A DNA stretch of 64,000 bases from an uncultured Alphaproteobacteria bacterium (GTDB lineage Bacteria > Pseudomonadota > Alphaproteobacteria > CAAHEQ01 > UBA3637): NCBI GenBank assembly GCA_944391735.1, contig CALXUR010000005.1:6428-70427 (forward strand), written 5' to 3'. The stretch's first letter is position 1. Each line of letters opens with the position of its first letter. The position numbers were made by a program, and so were the translations under genes. Under the pieces are notes generated by a model, which did not search any database, had not been told where the DNA came from, and worked only from the letters and a program-made list of their open reading frames with translations. Positions 282-20,400 of this stretch are shown in pieces.

Positions 282-1556
282 TTATCCAGTTAATTCTGCA
301 TTATAAGTGCTTGTTTCTGCATTATTTTTTGATATTTCGCCACTTTCTAGCAGAACAGCCTTTTTACCGGTCCAATCTTCCCATCTTTTTACGATAACAT
401 CGCAGTATTTCGGGTCCAATTCCATCAATCTTGCGACTCGACCGGTCTTCTCACAGGCGATTAAAGTCGACCCGGAACCGCTAAATCCGTCCAAAACAAT
501 CTCGCCAACCTTGGAACTGTTGTTGATAGCGCGCTCAACAAGCTCGACCGGTTTCATTGTCGGGTGCAGGTCATTGTGCTGTGGCTTGTTATATTCCCAA
601 ATGTCGGATTGGTTCCGGTCACCACACCAATAGTGAGGCTTGTCGCTCACCCAGCCGTAGAGGATAGGTTCATATTGCCGCTGATAGTCAGCTCGGCCCA
701 AGGTAAAGGTGTTCTTGGTCCAAATGATAAAGGTGGACCATTTGCCGCCGGCTTTCACAAATGCCGAGTAAAGGGTGTGAAGTTCAGACGAACTCATGCA
801 AACGTAAGCGGCACCTTTGCAATACATCAGCATATTGGTGCAGGCATCGTAAAGGAACTGCTCGAAATCTTCGCCCAGGTTGTCGTTCATAATGGTGCGG
901 CCATGGTTCGGACTGGTGTGATAACGGAGTTTGTCTTTCATCGTTGCGCCGTAGTTAACATTGTATGGCGGGTCGGTAAAGATCATGTCGGCCACGTCGT
1001 TTTGCATTAACTTTTTGAAATCGTCTATCATGGTCGTGTCGCCGCACATCAACCGGTGGTTTCCCAACTGCCAAACGTCACCATGCTTGGAGGTAGGTTC
1101 AACCGGGGCCTCGGGAACCTCATCATCTTCGGTGTTACCAGTGTCCTGAATTTCGCCAAAGTTCTCGAGGGCCTTTAGTTCATCATTGGTAAAGCCGAGA
1201 TTAGTTAAATCAAAGTCCTCGTCTTTCAGCTCGCCGATTTCCAATGCCAACATCTTTTCATCCCAACCAGCGTTGAGGGCGATCCGGTTATCGGCAATGA
1301 CCAAGGCTCGGCGTTGTGTTTCGGTTAAGTCCGGTAAGACGATGACCGGGACTTCTGTCAAACCTAAGCGTTGAGCCGCCAAAAGTCTGCCATGTCCGGC
1401 AATGATAACGTTGTCCGAGCCGATAAGGATCGGGTTGGTAAAGCCGAACTCCTTAATACTGGCCATAATCTGTGCTACTTGCTCATCATTGTGCGTGCGC
1501 GAGTTGCGTGCGTAAGGGATAAGTTTATCCACTGGAAAATTCTGTTGAAATTCCAT
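282..1556 (-). CDS. ParB-like N-terminal domain fused to N6/N4 DNA methyltransferase
   Basis: ParB-like LIPYARNSRTH...IIAGHGRLLAA; catalytic DPPY; HPTMKP and VLDGFSGSGSTLIACE SAM-binding motif (beta-class order). Start moved to MEFQQ at 1556 (RBS GGAG). Confidence 0.92.
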   Translation of the reverse strand: MEFQQNFPVDKLIPYARNSRTHNDEQVAQIMASIKEFGFTNPILIGSDNVIIAGHGRLLAAQRLGLTEVPVIVLPDLTETQRRALVIADNRIALNAGWDEKMLALEIGELKDEDFDLTNLGFTNDELKALENFGEIQDTGNTEDDEVPEAPVEPTSKHGDVWQLGNHRLMCGDTTMIDDFKKLMQNDVADMIFTDPPYNVNYGATMKDKLRYHTSPNHGRTIMNDNLGEDFEQFLYDACTNMLMYCKGAAYVCMSSSELHTLYSAFVKAGGKWSTFIIWTKNTFTLGRADYQRQYEPILYGWVSDKPHYWCGDRNQSDIWEYNKPQHNDLHPTMKPVELVERAINNSSKVGEIVLDGFSGSGSTLIACEKTGRVARLMELDPKYCDVIVKRWEDWTGKKAVLLESGEISKNNAETSTYNAELTG

Positions 1557-1589
1557 TTTTGCTCCTGAATTTGTGTGATAAAACAAAGG

Positions 1590-1691
1590 GTGACCACCCA
1601 AAATTACAAAGTGACCACCCAAAATTTTAATTCGTTGTTATAACTATTTGATATTACTTTATTTTTAGGTGACCACTGACCACCCAAAATT
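1590..1691. repeat. Three direct repeats TGACCACCCAAAATT (1591, 1612, 1677) plus a partial GTGACCAC (1669); cosB R-site-like
   Basis: Exact 15-bp copies read from the sequence, immediately downstream (minus strand) of the cosN-like site. Confidence 0.75.
1641..1653 (-). promoter_or_regulatory. IHF-binding consensus site
   Basis: Minus strand TATCAAATAGTTA matches WATCAANNNNTTR exactly and lies in an AT-rich gap between two of the repeats. Confidence 0.6.
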
Positions 1692-1714
1692 TTTGTGTTT
1701 TGCTAGAAAAATGC

Positions 1715-1758
1715 CGCGGCTTGGACCCCCGCATACGATCCGAAGCGAGGAAGGACCC
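1715..1758 (-). other. Lambda-like cosQ + cosN packaging site
   Basis: Minus strand GGGTCCT (same as lambda cosQ), a 17-nt spacer, then ATGCG-GGGGTCCAAGC-CGCGG (lambda cosN: TTACG-GGGCGGCGACCT-CGCGG). Confidence 0.7.
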
Positions 1759-1819
1759 GCCGGCCTCGGCCGATCGAAGTTGAGCGACCAACTGGCGGAA
1801 CTTCCCGGAAACTGCGGGG

Positions 1820-2866
1820 TTAGGCAACAAGTTTGTCTTCCTGAACCGGAACGATAGTCAACGTCTGCAAAGTCTTGCGGCATAATTTGGTGTAAATCGG
1901 TCGATCCAAGCCGAAGAACTTGATTAAAGTATTCGGTTTTTGGTTGCAAACAAGCGGACTATTCGTAACAACACCGTTCTTAACAGTCCGGATCAAGCCG
2001 CTGGGCAGTTCAGACTTGCCGATGCAAGATGAAAGGTAGACGAAGCATTCATCATTGTCGCCAAGATGTTCGGTTGCAAGGTAACGTGCGTAGACATTCA
2101 ATGTTAAGTCAGCCTTGCTCGGGTCCTTGGTCCATGGCGAACCACCGCCAATCGGGCAGGCGGTAGAATAGAAGTCGCACGCTAATTTCCGACCGGTAAT
2201 ACCACAGTCGGCAATGGATGAATGGAATTGATAAATGCCTGTGCCATTCACGATGATGGACTTTAGCTCTTGTCCGAGCGCATCAACGACAAATGGTTTG
2301 ATGTCTTCCGGTTCCAGCATAGGTATGGCAACTATGGCAGTCACTATGTCACCGGTTGCATCATCTATGGTAATTTGTGTTTTTATGTCGAGGCCAAGGT
2401 TAGATGATGTCTTTGCATGTTCATAAAGAGCATTATTTAGTTTGCGTGCCAGCCATAACTCGCGGTTGATTAAGCCCGGTCCTTTGCAGGCATAGCCCAC
2501 AAACACGCCTTGATCTCCCCATCCATCGCGCTCGACACCTTGGTTGATGTCGGCCGATTGGACCCCGATTTTGTTTATGACCTCTATATGTCGAACATCT
2601 ATGGCATAATTTTTCCATATACTAGAGTAATGTTCATCATAACCGATTTCTCGGAGAGCATTGCAGACATATGTTTCGATGTCTGACATATCTACCGAAC
2701 CTTTGACCTCACCACCGAGCATAACGCAGTTATCTTTGATCATAACTTCCACAGCGTAATGAACGCCGGGATCCTGCTCGATAAGTCTGTCTAAAATGTA
2801 ACTTGAAATGTAATCGGCTGTTTTATCCGGGTGGCCGATAGACACCGCTTCAGCTGTTTTCAGCAT
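1820..2866 (-). CDS. Divergent S-adenosylmethionine synthetase-like protein (prophage copy)
   Basis: MetK motifs GHPDK, GDQG, DCGITGRK and KDPSKAD. Canonical GAGDQG and GGGAFSGKD are replaced by GWGDQG and GGGSPWTKD. RBS AGGAG. Confidence 0.85.
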   Translation of the reverse strand: MLKTAEAVSIGHPDKTADYISSYILDRLIEQDPGVHYAVEVMIKDNCVMLGGEVKGSVDMSDIETYVCNALREIGYDEHYSSIWKNYAIDVRHIEVINKIGVQSADINQGVERDGWGDQGVFVGYACKGPGLINRELWLARKLNNALYEHAKTSSNLGLDIKTQITIDDATGDIVTAIVAIPMLEPEDIKPFVVDALGQELKSIIVNGTGIYQFHSSIADCGITGRKLACDFYSTACPIGGGSPWTKDPSKADLTLNVYARYLATEHLGDNDECFVYLSSCIGKSELPSGLIRTVKNGVVTNSPLVCNQKPNTLIKFFGLDRPIYTKLCRKTLQTLTIVPVQEDKLVA

Positions 2867-2874
2867 AAGTTTTT

Positions 2875-2925
2875 CTCCTGTTTAGTCCGTTATAGTAGGA
2901 CAAGTTGGCCTAAATCCACATCACC
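2875..2925 (-). ncRNA. Putative SAM-II/SAM-V-class riboswitch overlapping the metK-like Shine-Dalgarno
   Basis: RNA GUGG-AUUU-AGGCCAAC-UUGUCC-UAC-UAUAAC-GGACUAAA-C-AGGAG. UUGUCC pairs with GGAC(U)AA, CC pairs with the GG of the SD, and P1 is GUG(G)/(C)UAC. It lies directly upstream of a SAM synthetase homolog. Confidence 0.65.
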
Positions 2926-2979
2926 ACGTCACCCGACGAGGTTGCTCTGATTATGGCAGATTTATTGGAAAATTACAAC

Positions 2980-3013
2980 AAAAAAATCCGCCGGTTTGCC
3001 GCCAGCGGATTTC
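2980..3013 (-). terminator. Intrinsic terminator between the DUF6362-like gene and metK-like gene
   Basis: AAAUCCGCUGG-cggcaaa-CCGGCGGAUUU followed by a U-tract on the minus strand. Confidence 0.75.
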
Positions 3014-3079: not shown

Positions 3080-3502
3080 TTATAGCACTTTTTTTTGAAA
3101 ATGTCTTGTCTTTTTTTGTCTTGACAAATTTCCTGCTAGGTATCCTCGTAAGTAATTGATAATACGTTCATATCGCACGTTCAATTGAGGCCTTGATAAG
3201 CCATATTCGTGACATAGTAGCTTCCAAGGAATATGACAAGCACGTTTCCATACGAGTGTTCTTTCATCAACAGTCAGCAATGGCAACCATTTCAGAATAA
3301 CTCTTTCCCAAATATCAATTTGCTCTTTAGTTGGACGAGGCGGTTTTGGTCGCTGATCCATAAAAGCAATTTCTTGTGGAGTGTAAACGATTTCAAAAAG
3401 CCAACAGCGATATTTTGGCGGTCGAACCGGAGGTAAAAGCCGCTCTACGTAAGCCGCCGTTGCTAAATCTCTTTTGATTTGTTCAAGTGTGACTTGCTTC
3501 AT
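3080..3502 (-). CDS. DUF6362-like phage protein (possible late-gene regulator)
   Basis: LPPVRPPKY...W...EIVYTPQE...WLPLL..DERTLVWKRACHIPWKLLC pattern, recognised as typical of alphaproteobacterial prophage genes preceding the packaging region. Confidence 0.6.
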   Translation of the reverse strand: MKQVTLEQIKRDLATAAYVERLLPPVRPPKYRCWLFEIVYTPQEIAFMDQRPKPPRPTKEQIDIWERVILKWLPLLTVDERTLVWKRACHIPWKLLCHEYGLSRPQLNVRYERIINYLRGYLAGNLSRQKKTRHFQKKVL

Positions 3503-5160: not shown

Positions 5161-6873
5161 TTATGCTGGGTTAAAACCGAGTTCACGTCTTTGATCTTCC
5201 CATGAGTAAGGGAAGTGATCCCGGATTAGTCTTCGTGCAGTCAGTAATTTGGGCTGTCTACCTTCTATAATTGCCATTATGATGTCCGGAGCTAATGTCG
5301 TAAGCCTTAAGATTTGTCCCATGTATCCACGATCTAATTTTTCTCTTTTTGAGAGTTCACTGAGGGATATCTTTTGGTCATCCATAACTTGTTTATAGTA
5401 AAATGCCTGAGTAACAGCATTGTAAAGCTTCATATCTCTTTCGCATGTTTCACCACTTGGCTGATTAGGTTCAACAATCTGAACACACCCGCGTTTACGT
5501 CCGAACTTTATAGGATAACTTAATTCAAGGAGTTTTTCATTATAATGACTGTCTTTCTCAATTGCACCGCGTTCAAATAAGTCTGCGCTCATCGGCCTAA
5601 GTTTTATTATAATATGATCAGTATAAACGATGACTTTTTCAACAACTTCTGTAATAAACTCGTGTACAGTGGCTGGCTCGAAGTACTGGAAAGCTTGGCC
5701 AATATCCTGCACTATGTTGTGAACATCTGCACCATTAAAGTCTTCATTTTGCCGCTTAAATTCTTTCAGTAGTTCTTCCTGTAGTTCCGGTGTTTGAAAA
5801 ATCTTTTTAACCTTGTCTAAAACAAAATTATCAATTGCACCGGCTGGAATACTTCCAATTTGGCAATGGGCGTTATTTGCACCTTCTTTAACAGCCTTCA
5901 AGGAAGTGTAGTACTCATAATATTTATTACCTCTCTTACTTCGGGTTGGGGTCATTGTTCCACAACACGAGCATTCAAGTAGACCTTTCAACAAACTGTT
6001 TTTAACAGAGCGGCAAGGTCTGAATGCTGTTCCAATGTTGTCTTTTTTTACTTTTCTTGTTTCATCCCAAAGTTCCTGAGTGATGATCGCTTTGTGCTGT
6101 CCCTTATACAACTCTCCCTTATAAGGAACCATTCCAATGTATATCGGGTTATTAAGGATATTGGATATCATCGCATGGTTAAACATCTCACAGCCAACAA
6201 TTTTTCCTGTTTTTGTTTTCCATGTTTTCGGCTTGAAGCCTTTTTCGTTCAGATCTTCCACCGTTCTTATTTGAGATCTTGTTCTCTTATAGTCCTCAAA
6301 AATGAATCGTATTGTTTCAGCCTCAGCCGGGTTTATTACCAACTTTTTATTATTAACGTCATATCCAAGTGGGATAGCCCCACCAGTCCACATGCCTTTT
6401 TTCTTACTGGCCGCAATTTTATCGCGGACACGTTCCGCACCAAGCTCACGCTCAAATTGTGCAAATGACAGCAGAATATTTAATGTTAACTTGCCCATGG
6501 AATCGCAAGTATTAAAGTGCTGTGTCACAGATACGAATGAACAATTATTCTTTTCAAAAGTTTGAACTAATTGTGCGAAATCAAGGAGTGAACGTGTTAA
6601 TCGGTCTATCTTATAGACGACAATCATGTCCACTTTGCCTTTTTCTATGTCAGCCATCAACCTTTTCAATGCAGGCCTTTTTAAGTTACCACCGCTAAAG
6701 CCACCATCATCGTATCGATCAGGGAGGATTATCCACCCCTGGTGCTTCATACTCATTACGAAGTTTTCGCCAGCTTCGCGTTGGGCCTCAAGTGTATTGA
6801 ATTCCTTTTCAAGACCTTCATCTGTTGATTTACGAGTGTAAATTGCGCATCTTATTTGTTTTTGTTCTTCCAT
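5161..6873 (-). CDS. Large serine recombinase (resolvase + recombinase + Zn-ribbon-like domains)
   Basis: RCAIYTRKST catalytic Ser motif, YDDGGFSGGNLKRPALKRL, VYKIDRLTRS, and Cys pair CSCCG. Confidence 0.93.
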   Translation of the reverse strand: MEEQKQIRCAIYTRKSTDEGLEKEFNTLEAQREAGENFVMSMKHQGWIILPDRYDDGGFSGGNLKRPALKRLMADIEKGKVDMIVVYKIDRLTRSLLDFAQLVQTFEKNNCSFVSVTQHFNTCDSMGKLTLNILLSFAQFERELGAERVRDKIAASKKKGMWTGGAIPLGYDVNNKKLVINPAEAETIRFIFEDYKRTRSQIRTVEDLNEKGFKPKTWKTKTGKIVGCEMFNHAMISNILNNPIYIGMVPYKGELYKGQHKAIITQELWDETRKVKKDNIGTAFRPCRSVKNSLLKGLLECSCCGTMTPTRSKRGNKYYEYYTSLKAVKEGANNAHCQIGSIPAGAIDNFVLDKVKKIFQTPELQEELLKEFKRQNEDFNGADVHNIVQDIGQAFQYFEPATVHEFITEVVEKVIVYTDHIIIKLRPMSADLFERGAIEKDSHYNEKLLELSYPIKFGRKRGCVQIVEPNQPSGETCERDMKLYNAVTQAFYYKQVMDDQKISLSELSKREKLDRGYMGQILRLTTLAPDIIMAIIEGRQPKLLTARRLIRDHFPYSWEDQRRELGFNPA

Positions 6874-8754: not shown

Positions 8755-9294
8755 ATGTTACATTTAATTTACCCGCAACCCGATTTTTTAGAAACATTTC
8801 GACAAGGACTGACCGAAATACGAAACAACCGGACACCTTATGATTTACGGGCCGTTCAACAAGCCATTTCATTTATGGACAATGATTTTGAGGGATACTG
8901 GGATTACCTGGACAAAAGTGAGTCTCAAGACCAACCGGAAGGATATGTTCCAAGCACAACTCTTTGGTTGATGAACGGAAATAAGTTTGTGGGATTATAT
9001 GATATTCGTCATTATTTAACGCCGGCTCTTGAAAAACAAGGCGGACATATCGGATACCAAATTATTCCGTCCGAACGGGGACAAGGATACGTTCGGGATG
9101 GACTAAAGCTTGTTCTGGAATGGTGCCGGTCTCATTTAAATTTAGAGACCGTGTTATTATGTTGCAATCAAAAAAATACGGCTTCTTATCGGGCAATGAC
9201 ATCGGTCATGCGTGAGATGGGCGGATACGAAAGACCGGTGATTGAAATTGACAATCAGTTGGAATGTTCCGTTTGGATTAAGACAAAAAAATAA
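8755..9294 (+). CDS. GNAT family N-acetyltransferase
   Basis: VPSTTLWL...GGHIGYQIIPSERGQGY...N.ASYRAM. Start at MLHL. Confidence 0.85.
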   Translation: MLHLIYPQPDFLETFRQGLTEIRNNRTPYDLRAVQQAISFMDNDFEGYWDYLDKSESQDQPEGYVPSTTLWLMNGNKFVGLYDIRHYLTPALEKQGGHIGYQIIPSERGQGYVRDGLKLVLEWCRSHLNLETVLLCCNQKNTASYRAMTSVMREMGGYERPVIEIDNQLECSVWIKTKK

Positions 9295-18041: not shown

Positions 18042-19406
18042 ATGTTATCTGCAGATGCGCACCGTTTAACAGACGGACATATAGCCCGCACACTTTTTAA
18101 GTTTGCCCTTCCCTATTTGGGCGCTAATTTCCTTGTGGCTCTTTATGGTGCAGCCGACGTTCTGATTGTCAGTTATTTTGCAAGTCCCGCAGCACTTGCG
18201 GCAACGTCCACGGGGGCGCAGGCCGTATTTACGATGATGGCTCTGGCAATCGGGTTAACACTGGGCGGAACCATTTTAATCGGGCAATATTTCGGTGCCA
18301 AAAAGGAAAAGGATGTTATTGAAACGATTCAAACGGTATTTTCCCTGTTTGCCATTACCGCTTTGATCGGTTCAGCCGTTATGTTCATTTTTGCCCGTCC
18401 GATCGCCGCACTTTTGGAAACACCGCCGGAAGCATTTCAAGGTGCCTGTCAATACATCATGATTTGCGGTGGCGGATTAATCTTTACTTTTGCTTATGAA
18501 TCGATCAGTGCCGTTCTTCGTGGTCTGGGAGATTCTAAAAATCCGTTAAAATTCATTGCGGCAGCTTGTTCAATGAATATCCTTTTAGACTTATTGTTTG
18601 TCGGGGGATTCAATTGGGGTGCCGCGGGTGCCGCAGCGGCAACCGTTATCTCCCAGGCATTCAGTGTTCTGGTGGCTGTTCTGTATTTACGACACCGAAA
18701 ATTTATCTTTGACTTTTCATGGAAGAGTTTCGGATTTCATTCTGAAAAAGCAAAAAAAATTTTACGTCTTGGTATTCCGTCCGCCATTCAACAAACCGTT
18801 ATTTTTACATCCTTTACCATTATGACCGCCATCGTGAACAAAATGGGAGTTATCGCTTCGGCGGCTGCCGGCATTACAACCAAAATAGACGGTTTTATGA
18901 TTATGCCGTCTTTGGCATTCGCCTCTGCCGTTTCGGTTATGACGGCACAAAACATCGGCGCACGCCAAATCAAGCGAGCAAAAGAAACATTCTATACCGG
19001 TTTTTTGATGGCTTTATGTTTTGGCGCACCGTCATTTTATATGATGTATCACCATGCGCCGACCGTGATGCGGCTTGTAACCGAAAATACCGATATTATC
19101 AACGCGGGTGCCGATTTTATGTTAGCCTATAGTCCCGATTGTATTTTGTTAAGCCTTGTTTTTTGTCTGAACGGTTTTTTAAATGGCAGCGGGCGAACCA
19201 CATTCACAATGACAAATAATTTAATATCCACTTTGTTCTTTCGGGTTCCCCTTATTTTCCAAGCAACAACTCTGTTTGCGGCAGGCTTTGCACTTCCGCT
19301 TTCTACGATACCGCAAATCATGTTATCTTTATTTTATTTTTACAAAGGATATTGGAAAAAATCCGTTATTGATAACCCAAGGAGAAAAAATGATCAAAAC
19401 AGCTGA
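18042..19406 (+). CDS. MATE family efflux transporter
   Basis: About 12 hydrophobic segments; LRGLGDSKNPL, NILLDLLFV..G.AGAAAATVISQ, AQNIGA. Confidence 0.92.
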   Translation: MLSADAHRLTDGHIARTLFKFALPYLGANFLVALYGAADVLIVSYFASPAALAATSTGAQAVFTMMALAIGLTLGGTILIGQYFGAKKEKDVIETIQTVFSLFAITALIGSAVMFIFARPIAALLETPPEAFQGACQYIMICGGGLIFTFAYESISAVLRGLGDSKNPLKFIAAACSMNILLDLLFVGGFNWGAAGAAAATVISQAFSVLVAVLYLRHRKFIFDFSWKSFGFHSEKAKKILRLGIPSAIQQTVIFTSFTIMTAIVNKMGVIASAAAGITTKIDGFMIMPSLAFASAVSVMTAQNIGARQIKRAKETFYTGFLMALCFGAPSFYMMYHHAPTVMRLVTENTDIINAGADFMLAYSPDCILLSLVFCLNGFLNGSGRTTFTMTNNLISTLFFRVPLIFQATTLFAAGFALPLSTIPQIMLSLFYFYKGYWKKSVIDNPRRKNDQNS

Positions 19407-20400
19407 ATTTGTTTCTTTAGGACATCCCGATAAAACGGCCGATTTTATTACCAGTTACATTTTAGACCGCTTGATTGAGCAAGATGAACTTGTTAAATAC
19501 GGTGTCGAAGTGATGATAAAAGACAACACCGTCGTGTTGGGCGGAGAAATTAACGGACATGTTGTTCTGAATGACCTGACAAGTTGGGTCAAAGAAGCGT
19601 TACGCCAAATCGGATATGATGAACACTACGCCTCTTTATGGGGAAATAACGCCGTCAACATCAACAAATTGAATGTTATCAATTTAATCGGGCTACAATC
19701 TCCGGAAATTAATCAGGGGGTCATACAAAACGGTTGGGGCGACCAAGGCGTGTTTGTGGGATACGCCTGTCAAGGTCCGGATTTTTTACCCAGAGAGTTA
19801 TCATTGGCGCGAAAGTTGGCAAATACATTTTACGAACAAGCCAAACAATCGGATTGTTTGGGGTTGGATATTAAGGCTCAAATCACATTGGATGAAGAAA
19901 ATCACATCGAAACGGCGATACTGGCCGTTCCGATGCGTCGGCCTGTTGACATTTCAAATGAGGAAATTGCCGCCGCATTAGGGGAACAACCTAAAAACAT
20001 CATTGTGAACGGAACAGGATCTTATACCACCCACTCTGCCGTTGCCGATTGCGGTATTACGGGACGTAAACTGGCATGCGACTTTTACTCAACCGCCTGT
20101 CCGGTCGGTGGCGGATCTCCATGGACAAAAGACGCCACAAAAGCAGATTTGACCTTAAATTTATATGCGCGAAAATTGGCAATTGACTTGTTACGGGAAA
20201 ATGACGAATGTTTCGTCTACCTGTCTTCGTGTATCGGCCGGAGTGAGTTGCCGAGTGCTGTTGTCAAAACAATTAAAAACGGGGTCATAAAGGTAAACAA
20301 TATTCAAATAAAACAAACCCCGAAAGACATGATTCAACAACTCGGTCTGAACAAACCGGTTTTCGCCGACATGTGCCGCACAGGTATTGTATTATATTAA
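19390..20400 (+). CDS. metK: Divergent S-adenosylmethionine synthetase-like protein (chromosomal copy)
   Basis: GHPDK, GWGDQG, DCGITGRK, GGGSPWTKD..KAD. Start at MIKT (RBS AGGAG) overlaps the MATE 3' end. Confidence 0.8.
   Translation: MIKTAEFVSLGHPDKTADFITSYILDRLIEQDELVKYGVEVMIKDNTVVLGGEINGHVVLNDLTSWVKEALRQIGYDEHYASLWGNNAVNINKLNVINLIGLQSPEINQGVIQNGWGDQGVFVGYACQGPDFLPRELSLARKLANTFYEQAKQSDCLGLDIKAQITLDEENHIETAILAVPMRRPVDISNEEIAAALGEQPKNIIVNGTGSYTTHSAVADCGITGRKLACDFYSTACPVGGGSPWTKDATKADLTLNLYARKLAIDLLRENDECFVYLSSCIGRSELPSAVVKTIKNGVIKVNNIQIKQTPKDMIQQLGLNKPVFADMCRTGIVLY

Follow-up and report, generated by a model that had tools for sequence, protein, structure and literature searches.

A host-type S-adenosylmethionine synthetase gene with a candidate riboswitch leader and an orphan DNA methyltransferase gene flank a predicted cos site in an alphaproteobacterial prophage

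We analyzed a 64,000-nucleotide stretch of DNA (the window) from an uncultured alphaproteobacterium, covering positions 6,428 to 70,427 of contig CALXUR010000005.1 (C5:6428-70427) in a 1.0-Mb, 20-contig genome assembly that is 75% complete. The left part of the window, together with 6.4 kb of additional sequence to the left of its start (L001), holds a prophage on the minus strand, as determined by annotation of open reading frames (ORFs), domains and PHROG families. The prophage gene order starts with a serine integrase (5161-6873, minus strand) and continues on the same strand with a sigma-like ORF, DUF6291, DUF6362, a gene for a protein resembling the S-adenosylmethionine (SAM) synthetase MetK (1820-2866), a 263-bp gap, and a gene for a ParB-N6/N4 DNA methyltransferase (282-1556). 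Beyond the methyltransferase are five small ORFs and one divergent DUF3489 ORF, the small terminase gene terS, the GpA-type large terminase gene terL, gpW, and a portal gene that is interrupted by the contig end. The GpA-family large terminase, Nu1-like small subunit, lambda-type portal and gpW were all detected (PF05876, PF20454, PF05136, phrog_57, phrog_75). The hosts of related loci are uncultured gut Alphaproteobacteria from humans and ruminants, many of them labelled Candidatus Enterousia. An earlier reading of the sequence alone had described a riboswitch and metK-like gene (2866-1820), a cos-like site (~1758-1590) and a ParB-N6/N4 methyltransferase (1556-282), and had proposed that the two genes form a module that makes SAM and then spends it. 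Both genes are present at these positions, one with three MetK domains and the catalytic motifs and the other with ParB_N and N6_N4_Mtase domains, and the bounds given for the cos-like site fit the features described below.

The 348-residue MetK contains the N-terminal, central and C-terminal SAM synthetase domains in order (PF00438, PF02772 and PF02773; 77.6, 30.3 and 51.3 bits, all above the Pfam cut-offs) and aligned over its full length to solved MetK structures, including E. coli MetK (7ll3/1fug). It retains the motifs GHPDK, E40, QSxDI, GDQG, DxKxQ, DxGxTGRK and KDxxKxD. In E. coli numbering, the conserved residues are E42, the gating loop QSxDI, D118 in GDQG, K165, D238, R244/K245, K265/D266, K269 and D271, and the catalytic and substrate-binding columns are invariant across phage and host copies. 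The protein belongs to a compact type (GWGDQG/GGGSPWTKD; phrog_1569) in which the central domain is shortened, and PHROG 1569 is still annotated as 'unknown function'. Its score with TIGR01034 was 174 bits, under the NCBIfam equivalog cut-off of 309.4, which was also missed by the host chromosomal copy (165 bits) and by every MetK homologue of the genus. One feature speaks against a conventional enzyme: GGGSPWTKD stands in for the canonical triphosphate loop GGGAFSGKD.

The compact type is not a phage invention. There is a chromosomal metK of the same type, without a riboswitch, between the genes for a MATE transporter and HflX (19390-20400, plus strand), and its product is 63% identical to the prophage MetK. 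The genome carries three compact-type copies and no canonical metK. All eight near-complete genomes of the genus had the compact type and no other MetK homologue, as did six of the seven other genera of the family; other alphaproteobacterial families possess canonical MetK. Because it is the sole MetK homologue in the near-complete genomes of the genus and in most sister genera, we infer that compact MetK is almost certainly a working SAM synthetase, and housekeeping SAM synthesis in the whole gut alphaproteobacterial lineage appears to depend on this shortened enzyme. The idea that compact MetK is specific to phages was ruled out. We found no assay of compact MetK in the literature.

We kept 79 genome loci from 327 relatives and labelled them 'host' or 'prophage' by the presence of 16 phage proteins within 8 kb. 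Approximately 64 had no phage genes nearby and 15 were prophage copies. In the tree, prophage copies were interspersed among host copies, and the well-supported (starred) branches force at least four label changes, so metK copies moved between chromosome and phage several times. Judged by alignment and tree, the prophage metK is a copy derived from the host lineage's own MetK type.

The gap between the two genes has the layout of a phage packaging site, with all features on the minus strand. A GGGTCCTTCC block that is cosQ-like by position (1749-1758) lies 21 nt upstream of the predicted nick region and is invariant in all relatives. It is followed by a cosN-like core, CGTATGC-GGGGG-TCCAAGCCGCGGC-N8-CTAGCA (1701-1737, with CGTATGC-GGGGG-TCCAAGCCGCGGC at 1737-1713 and CTAGCA at 1706-1701), and by a cosB-like region (1590-1689) with three direct repeats TTTTGGGTGGTCA(C/G) at 1689-1676, 1624-1611 and 1603-1590. 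There is one distal repeat, a 45-nt AT-rich spacer, and two proximal copies 21 bp apart, and this arrangement is conserved. Lambda cosB has the layout R3-I1-R2-R1, and the repeat-plus-spacer arrangement here, running towards terS, resembles it within the lambda order cosQ-cosN-cosB. The family block, GGGTCCTTCC-N10/11-CGTATGCGGGG-N3-CAAGCCGCG-N8-CTAGCG, is conserved above the level of the flanking genes. It was present in every relative that reaches the region, always moving with the methyltransferase start, and it keeps its distance of ~175 bp upstream of that start in relatives with a 1-1.8 kb cargo insert after metK as well. In some relatives only 25-44 bp are available upstream of terS; because this is too little room, a cos directly upstream of terS is unlikely in those relatives.

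Support for a packaging site came from comparison with isolated phages. The closest by terL (47% identity) are the Rhodobacter capsulatus RcC cluster (RcDormio, RcKemmy, RcOceanus), whose ends are 11-base 5' overhangs determined from read termini (PMC8601537). We took the ends of the RcC records as physical ends. The RcDormio and RcKemmy records end with GGTTCTTCC-N9-CGCTATGCG and begin with GGGGGCGGAAGCGCG-N8-CTAGCGTGACACG-T8 followed by three GGGTTTCCAC repeats, and the N8 there is followed by CTAGCG; RcOceanus has the same end sequence in joined form. GGTTCTTCC is at the same distance from the right end as GGGTCCTTCC is here, and the mapped ends fall in a block homologous to window positions 1758-1701. 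The gene context is also shared. The N-terminal 132 residues of the methyltransferase share 55% identity with RcDormio gene 1, the gene with which that genome opens, the TerS proteins are 31% identical, and both groups have the order DUF6362, end, ParB, small genes, terS, GpA terL, gpW, portal. Both have a GpA terminase, a lambda-type portal, gpW, and a GC-rich end block with three direct repeats. They differ in that the RcC ParB stands alone, the RcC methylase is an MT-A70 enzyme whose gene lies on the opposite side of cos, metK is absent, and the repeat sequences are unlike those of the present phage; in addition, the RcC ends were mapped with reads whereas the ends of the present phage are predicted from sequence.

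Because the gap is homologous to the read-mapped RcC ends in the same gene context, we read it as a lambda-type cos site, an assignment that the comparison supports. By homology, the nick would fall in the G-run at ~1730/1729 (minus strand), ~90 nt past the end of metK and ~173 nt before the methyltransferase start, and would leave an 11-nt 5' overhang of approximately GGGGGTCCAAG (1730-1720, ±1 nt). If so, metK is the last gene and the ParB-methyltransferase gene the first in virion DNA, and the two would be neighbors only when the DNA is circular, concatemeric or in the prophage state, as the sequence-only reading had also concluded.

The case for homology to the RcC ends has weaknesses. In an nhmmer search of ~1 Mb with a profile of 34 distinct family cores, the joined RcC ends were the best non-self match (11.4 bits). 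The E-value of 0.17 is modest; scaled to the 600 nt that were inspected, it corresponds to ~1e-4. Pairwise local alignment of the gap with the RcC junction was no better than with shuffles, and the similarity was noticed after the ends had been viewed, so the comparison was not a blind test. A blastn search of the gap against the phage collection gave no match. The start of one IMG/VR contig, 3 nt ahead of the core, is ambiguous, since strains also diverge there and assemblies break at such points. Several unrelated IMG/VR contigs (L146, L154, L158, L180 and others) start 65-650 bp upstream of a ParB-(methyltransferase) gene with a GpA terminase next; these starts would fit ParB-first genome ends being common in the GpA terminase family.

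The repeats provided a clue to what might bind them. A 2.7-kb block that runs from the methyltransferase gene as far as the last small ORF is 91% identical between loci L008 and L020, and their ParB-methyltransferase proteins are 97% identical. Their repeats differ (GGTTGTCA versus CTGGTCAC) and their TerS proteins are only 45% identical. The repeat type thus changes with terS and not with the ParB-methyltransferase, which is suggestive of the repeats being TerS binding sites, as predicted for a cosB, although it represents one evolutionary event only. Autoregulation by the ParB-methyltransferase through the repeats was ruled out, since the repeats change while the protein stays 97% identical. 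An RNA element in the cos region was likewise ruled out, its fold being not significant (z = -0.98).

The same block could instead be a late promoter or operator of the packaging operon, with GGGTCC-N15-CGTAT as the -35/-10 elements of an extracytoplasmic function (ECF)-type promoter for the sigma-like protein and the repeats as activator or repressor sites. It heads a long co-oriented operon, a conserved-variable-conserved layout is also typical of promoters, and both the 169-residue sigma-like ORF (phrog_1740, E = 6e-4) and the helix-turn-helix (HTH)-type DUF6362 gene lie just upstream of the metK and cos region. This explanation leaves unaccounted for the read-mapped RcDormio and RcKemmy ends inside the homologous block. 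Moreover, the core is invariant while the sigma-like protein is only 26-54% identical across relatives, and the repeats change with terS. We consider it improbable that the block is a promoter in place of a cos, but the two roles are compatible, as lambda, whose late transcripts run across cos, illustrates, and a promoter could be an additional one. The DUF6362 protein (3080-3502, minus strand) has a C-terminal HTH-like segment and a counterpart in RcDormio gene 69 (L130:2225-2788). Its gene is the last conserved gene ahead of the right genome end in both phage groups, and the protein may act in late regulation or as an accessory in packaging.

The first gene after the predicted cos encodes a 424-residue protein with a ParB_N domain and a beta-class (DPPY) N6/N4 methyltransferase domain (phrog_498, E = 6e-164) in which motif IV (TDPPYNV) is ahead of motif I (DGFSGSGST). 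The family phrog_498 is very large among phages (292 phage records at E ≤ 1e-40). No nuclease-type or restriction-enzyme-like family was found in any ORF from the integrase to the portal gene, in agreement with the earlier statement that no cognate restriction enzyme is in view. Because there is no restriction-enzyme-like gene in this interval, the methyltransferase is an orphan.

We surveyed gene neighborhoods for association of MetK with methyltransferases. The order of the two genes was kept in all 19 close viral relatives. In a sister clade of phage MetK (38-49% identity), a ParB-N6/N4 methyltransferase was within 2 kb in 19 of 25 loci and abutted metK in 15 of them. ParB-methyltransferases also lie beside MetK in two distant viral loci with a 33%-identical MetK, and Streptococcus phage Javan346 has the order MetK, A-methyltransferase, C-methyltransferase, terS, terL.

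Upstream of metK there is a short conserved leader within a self-contained cassette. An intrinsic terminator with a 12-bp stem and a T-run (2983-3013, minus strand) closes the DUF6291-DUF6362 operon, and its hairpin is kept in close relatives. It is followed by a sigma-70-like promoter, TTGTAA-17 nt-TG-CATAAT (2950-2978, minus strand), which is a consensus match only; two promoter-like sites were found in the region compared with 3.1 expected from shuffles. The position of the promoter between terminator and leader is kept in relatives of its own type. The leader itself (2875-2919, minus strand) is a candidate SAM riboswitch of the SAM-II/SAM-V type, that is, an H-type pseudoknot. From 5' to 3' it consists of the ascending strand of P1, GUG (2919-2917), the third strand GAUUUA (2916-2911), a turn GGCCAA (2910-2905) whose CC would pair with the Shine-Dalgarno (SD) sequence as P2a, the descending strand of P2, CUUGUCC (2904-2898), the descending strand of P1, UAC (2897-2895), an A-rich L3 (2894-2889), the ascending strand of P2, GGACUAAA (2888-2881), and AGGAG (2879-2875), which is directly the SD of metK.

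The motif ..GUG-GAUUUA-N6-CUUGUCC-N9-14-GGACUAAA-N-AGGAG was found upstream of host and prophage metK genes in 58 distinct versions, with GAUUUA, CUUGUCC and GGACUAAA invariant or almost so. We set the register from the SAM-V crystal-structure paper (PMC6061858) against the Rfam consensus. The leader has the same identities at the same spacing as SAM-V: the third strand G5..U8 U9 U10, the turn C14/C15, U19 U20 G21, the bulged U47, and A48 A49 A50. The distance from U8-U10 to U19-U20 equals that in the crystal structure. In SAM-V, U47 is bulged and pairs with the SAM adenine (PMC6061858), and U2884 is its predicted counterpart here.

We counted pairs in a 45-column alignment of 37 distinct sequences, taken as fixed-length slices that keep the register. 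The covariation score was 0.180 compared with 0.104 in shuffles, none of the 500 of which reached the observed value, and slid controls were at or below 0.074. P1 joins the strand just 5' of GAUUUA to the first bases of the P2 loop, and 82% of its cells were paired compared with 33-59% in the slid controls. Pair 3-29 occurred as GC (10), UA (9), CG (7) and AU (3), pair 5-27 as UA (15), UG (14) and CG (8), and P1 as a whole in versions such as GUG/CAC, GCG/CGC, CGCG/UGCG, AGGUG/UACCU and AAGGUG/UGCCUU. In P2a, between the turn and the SD, CC:GG never varies, whereas the third pair alternates, with UA in 22 sequences and AU in three (CCU:AGG versus CCA:UGG). A different pseudoknot, between the P2 loop and the SD, was rejected, the 3' part of the loop not being complementary to the SD and its 5' part pairing upstream of GAUUUA instead.

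The candidate shares with SAM-V the register, the base identities, and a P2a that includes the SD. It lacks P3, as does SAM-II, and it has in common with both classes the occurrence in Alphaproteobacteria and a predicted translational OFF design. Among the differences, P1 is short, at only 3-6 bp, and takes in the G5-equivalent residue, position 18 is C and not A, and the loop is only 9-14 nt. The leader also precedes metK and not the methionine biosynthesis genes that SAM-II and SAM-V typically govern, and a second SD-sequestering platform follows the motif in many host genomes. In those genomes (L065:7832-8010, L068:299-450 and 8806-8975, and ~30 other host loci), the motif is followed by ~110 nt containing AAUCCACCU, which is complementary to the 5' strand of the aptamer, and an SD-sequestering hairpin CCUUUGGUU/AACCAAAGG, and the SD of the motif itself leads into a short reading frame that is poorly conserved. 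The ~110-nt stretch is typical of an expression platform. A second riboswitch-like copy of the motif was seen before a small ORF (99 and 71 residues) just upstream of the riboswitch-metK unit at L098:6294-6650 and L113:7651-7925.

Weighing against the assignment of the leader, there was no Rfam match to it in the whole window at the gathering score, and at E ≤ 10 in three sub-regions the sole hint was SAM-V at 12.9 bits (E = 9.4), compared with a gathering score of 41. The P2 helix is invariant and hence gives no covariation signal either way. The riboswitch that the sequence-only reading had placed before metK thus held up as a conserved, covarying pseudoknot of the SAM-II/V type (2919-2875) while remaining under every Rfam threshold. 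Rfam silence alone would probably have given a wrong verdict of 'no riboswitch', and both the cos and the riboswitch calls made from raw sequence appear to have been right despite an empty standard library search. A SAM-II/V-type leader makes feedback control of MetK plausible. The motif is absent from about half of the prophage lineages (L009-L018) and from the genome's own chromosomal metK. We found no paper on a SAM riboswitch carried together with a phage metK.

Taken as a whole, the locus is in our judgment probably, though by no means securely, the cos junction of a temperate lambda-like phage of gut Alphaproteobacteria (Ca. Enterousia and relatives) with a GpA terminase, at which MetK supplies SAM for the phage's own methylation. 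In this mechanism, the early or regulatory operon would finish with DUF6362 and the terminator, followed by the metK cassette, comprising a promoter, a translational riboswitch of the SAM-II/V type and a gene for compact MetK that was copied from the host lineage, then by cos with its cosQ-like and cosN-like elements and three predicted TerS-binding repeats, and finally by the packaging-side operon from the ParB-N6/N4 methyltransferase to the portal. Nicking by terminase in the G-run near 1730/1729 would put metK at the very right end of the virion DNA, with the methyltransferase gene at the very left end. MetK would convert methionine and ATP to SAM. When SAM is high, the leader would fold, the U-rich third strand would dock in P2, P2a (CC:GG) would mask the SD, and translation of MetK would halt. 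The extra SAM would most plausibly sustain the phage methyltransferase, which would mark phage DNA made during replication and packaging and so protect it from restriction in the next host. The added SAM would equally raise the SAM capacity of the lysogen.

Several findings count against such coupling. The metK gene has its own predicted terminator, promoter and leader and would not form one expression unit with the methyltransferase gene, and given its own promoter it may be expressed mainly in lysogeny. In approximately nine relatives, metK is set apart from the methyltransferase by cargo inserted ahead of cos (1-1.8 kb), and the DUF6362-cos slot is a hot spot for cargo. MetK was absent from 45 viral loci with more distant ParB-methyltransferases, approximately eight of 51 loci with a canonical-type MetK had a methyltransferase nearby, and the RcC phages have no metK, all of which argues against an obligatory link. 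A remnant on contig C1 of the same genome has an integrase and a cos yet neither metK nor a methyltransferase. What stood of the proposed two-gene module is the recurrent pairing of MetK with ParB-methyltransferases; the separate metK promoter, the intervening cargo, and the lack of the riboswitch in about half of the prophage lineages did not fit it. The idea that the phage makes SAM and then spends it is plausible but unproven.

A serious rival is that metK is a lysogenic-conversion gene, or 'moron', with its own promoter and tuned by its riboswitch, that benefits a small-genome host through extra SAM or hitch-hikes beside cos, its adjacency to the methyltransferase being positional. The self-contained cassette (terminator, promoter, leader and gene) is what would be expected of a moron, as are a host-derived, repeatedly exchanged copy, a slot that gathers unrelated cargo (Fic/RhuM PDC-S23, a SocA-Panacea pair, two-gene membrane cassettes), and RcC phages that share the genome end without metK. 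A Streptococcus agalactiae prophage metK changes the aggregation and biofilm phenotypes of its host (PMC8223999). However, independent phage MetK lineages abut ParB-methyltransferases far more often than random placement would suggest (15 of 25 loci in the sister clade; L021 and L022; Javan346), and the host already owns a metK. SAM supply for the phage's own methylation is therefore the most likely purpose in our view, and a moron is possible but doubtful.

The cargo between metK and cos is of several kinds. Four different two-gene cassettes (L008:5836-7217, L011:5369-6732, L015:6783-8161, L018:7050-8494) each encode a ~300-residue protein and a 140-170-residue membrane protein with no Pfam or PADLOC match. 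Two further loci (L013:5154-6134, L014:5380-6225) account for the only cargo genes that PADLOC and Pfam recognized, those for a Fic/RhuM protein (PADLOC candidate PDC-S23) and for a SocA-Panacea antitoxin, the latter accompanied by a small membrane protein. The cargo genes are likely prophage-borne defence or toxin-antitoxin genes.

Another explanation is that phage MetK acts in counter-defence, holding SAM up against SAM-depleting systems of the host or of competitors, or disrupting host MetK through mixed oligomers. It is established that MetK active sites are built at subunit interfaces, and a type I restriction-modification (R-M) system is present in the genome on contig C1. T3 SAM lyase both degrades SAM and inhibits MetK, allowing escape from type I R-M and BREX (bioRxiv 10.1101/2023.02.27.530186). 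On the other hand, there is no evidence of a SAM-depleting defence in the present host, the intact catalytic residues favor an enzyme over a decoy, and more SAM would aid SAM-dependent restriction, so we regard counter-defence as very unlikely. Phage SAM lyases (the T3 Ocr-independent SAMase, Svi3-3) likewise manipulate the host SAM pool in a restriction-modification context, but they degrade SAM where MetK would synthesize it, and they belong to an unrelated protein family.

Phage metK genes are already known in number: there were 132 INPHARED phage records with a MetK homologue, and 59% of Ca. Heliusvirales genomes carry metK and 67% a DNA methyltransferase (PMC11283538). Those of Streptococcus Javan and S. 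suis prophages, Faecalibacterium phage FP_Brigit and Ca. Heliusvirales (PHROG 1569) likewise encode proteins of ~330-390 residues and lie upstream of methyltransferase and terminase genes. The present MetK differs from these in being of the host lineage's divergent type (GWGDQG, GGGSPWTKD), in keeping a candidate riboswitch leader, and in having the predicted cos between metK and the methyltransferase. We found no biochemical test of any phage MetK in the literature.

Two other elements were seen on contig C1, outside the window. The one at C1:6622-10335 has a serine integrase, a 254-residue ORF and homologues of the small ORFs, with a complete cos core and repeats at C1:9183-9360; it has no metK and no terminase, its methyltransferase gene is reduced to the last ~15 nt, and the type I R-M system comes next. 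This element is a decayed prophage or else a satellite with a cos site. The other, decayed, element (C1:23560-29473, part of which is L127) has a truncated integrase, the sigma-like ORF, DUF6291, a frameshifted DUF6362 and a truncated MetK (232 residues aligned), followed by a 145-residue class-I methyltransferase-like ORF and a radical-SAM protein, so that SAM users again lie beside MetK. The sole divergent gene in the prophage of the window, encoding DUF3489 (L001:4552-4911, plus strand), is flanked by the small ORFs and terS and lies 1.5-1.9 kb to the left of the window start; it was found in most relatives but not all.

A broader picture that joins these lines can be offered only tentatively. 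The leader would be an uncatalogued minimal SAM-II/V subclass, a SAM sensor and the main regulator of metK in a gut alphaproteobacterial family whose only SAM synthetase is compact MetK, and phages would have repeatedly captured sensor and enzyme as a cassette at their cos end. Late in infection, when concatemers join the genome ends, a MetK that is SAM-limited and throttles itself might feed the ParB-methyltransferase that marks the packaged DNA.

Phage metK genes are widely annotated and frequent in gut viromes; they are classed as 'auxiliary metabolic genes', and their purpose has been guessed. Because current Rfam models miss the present leader, similar metK leaders in gut Alphaproteobacteria are probably under-annotated. 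The locus is a clean system for tests, combining the host's only MetK type, a short leader with a predicted ligand pocket, an orphan methyltransferase, and a precisely predicted genome end. Each part is of a known kind, and together they are a testable case of a virus bringing a regulated methyl-donor supply.

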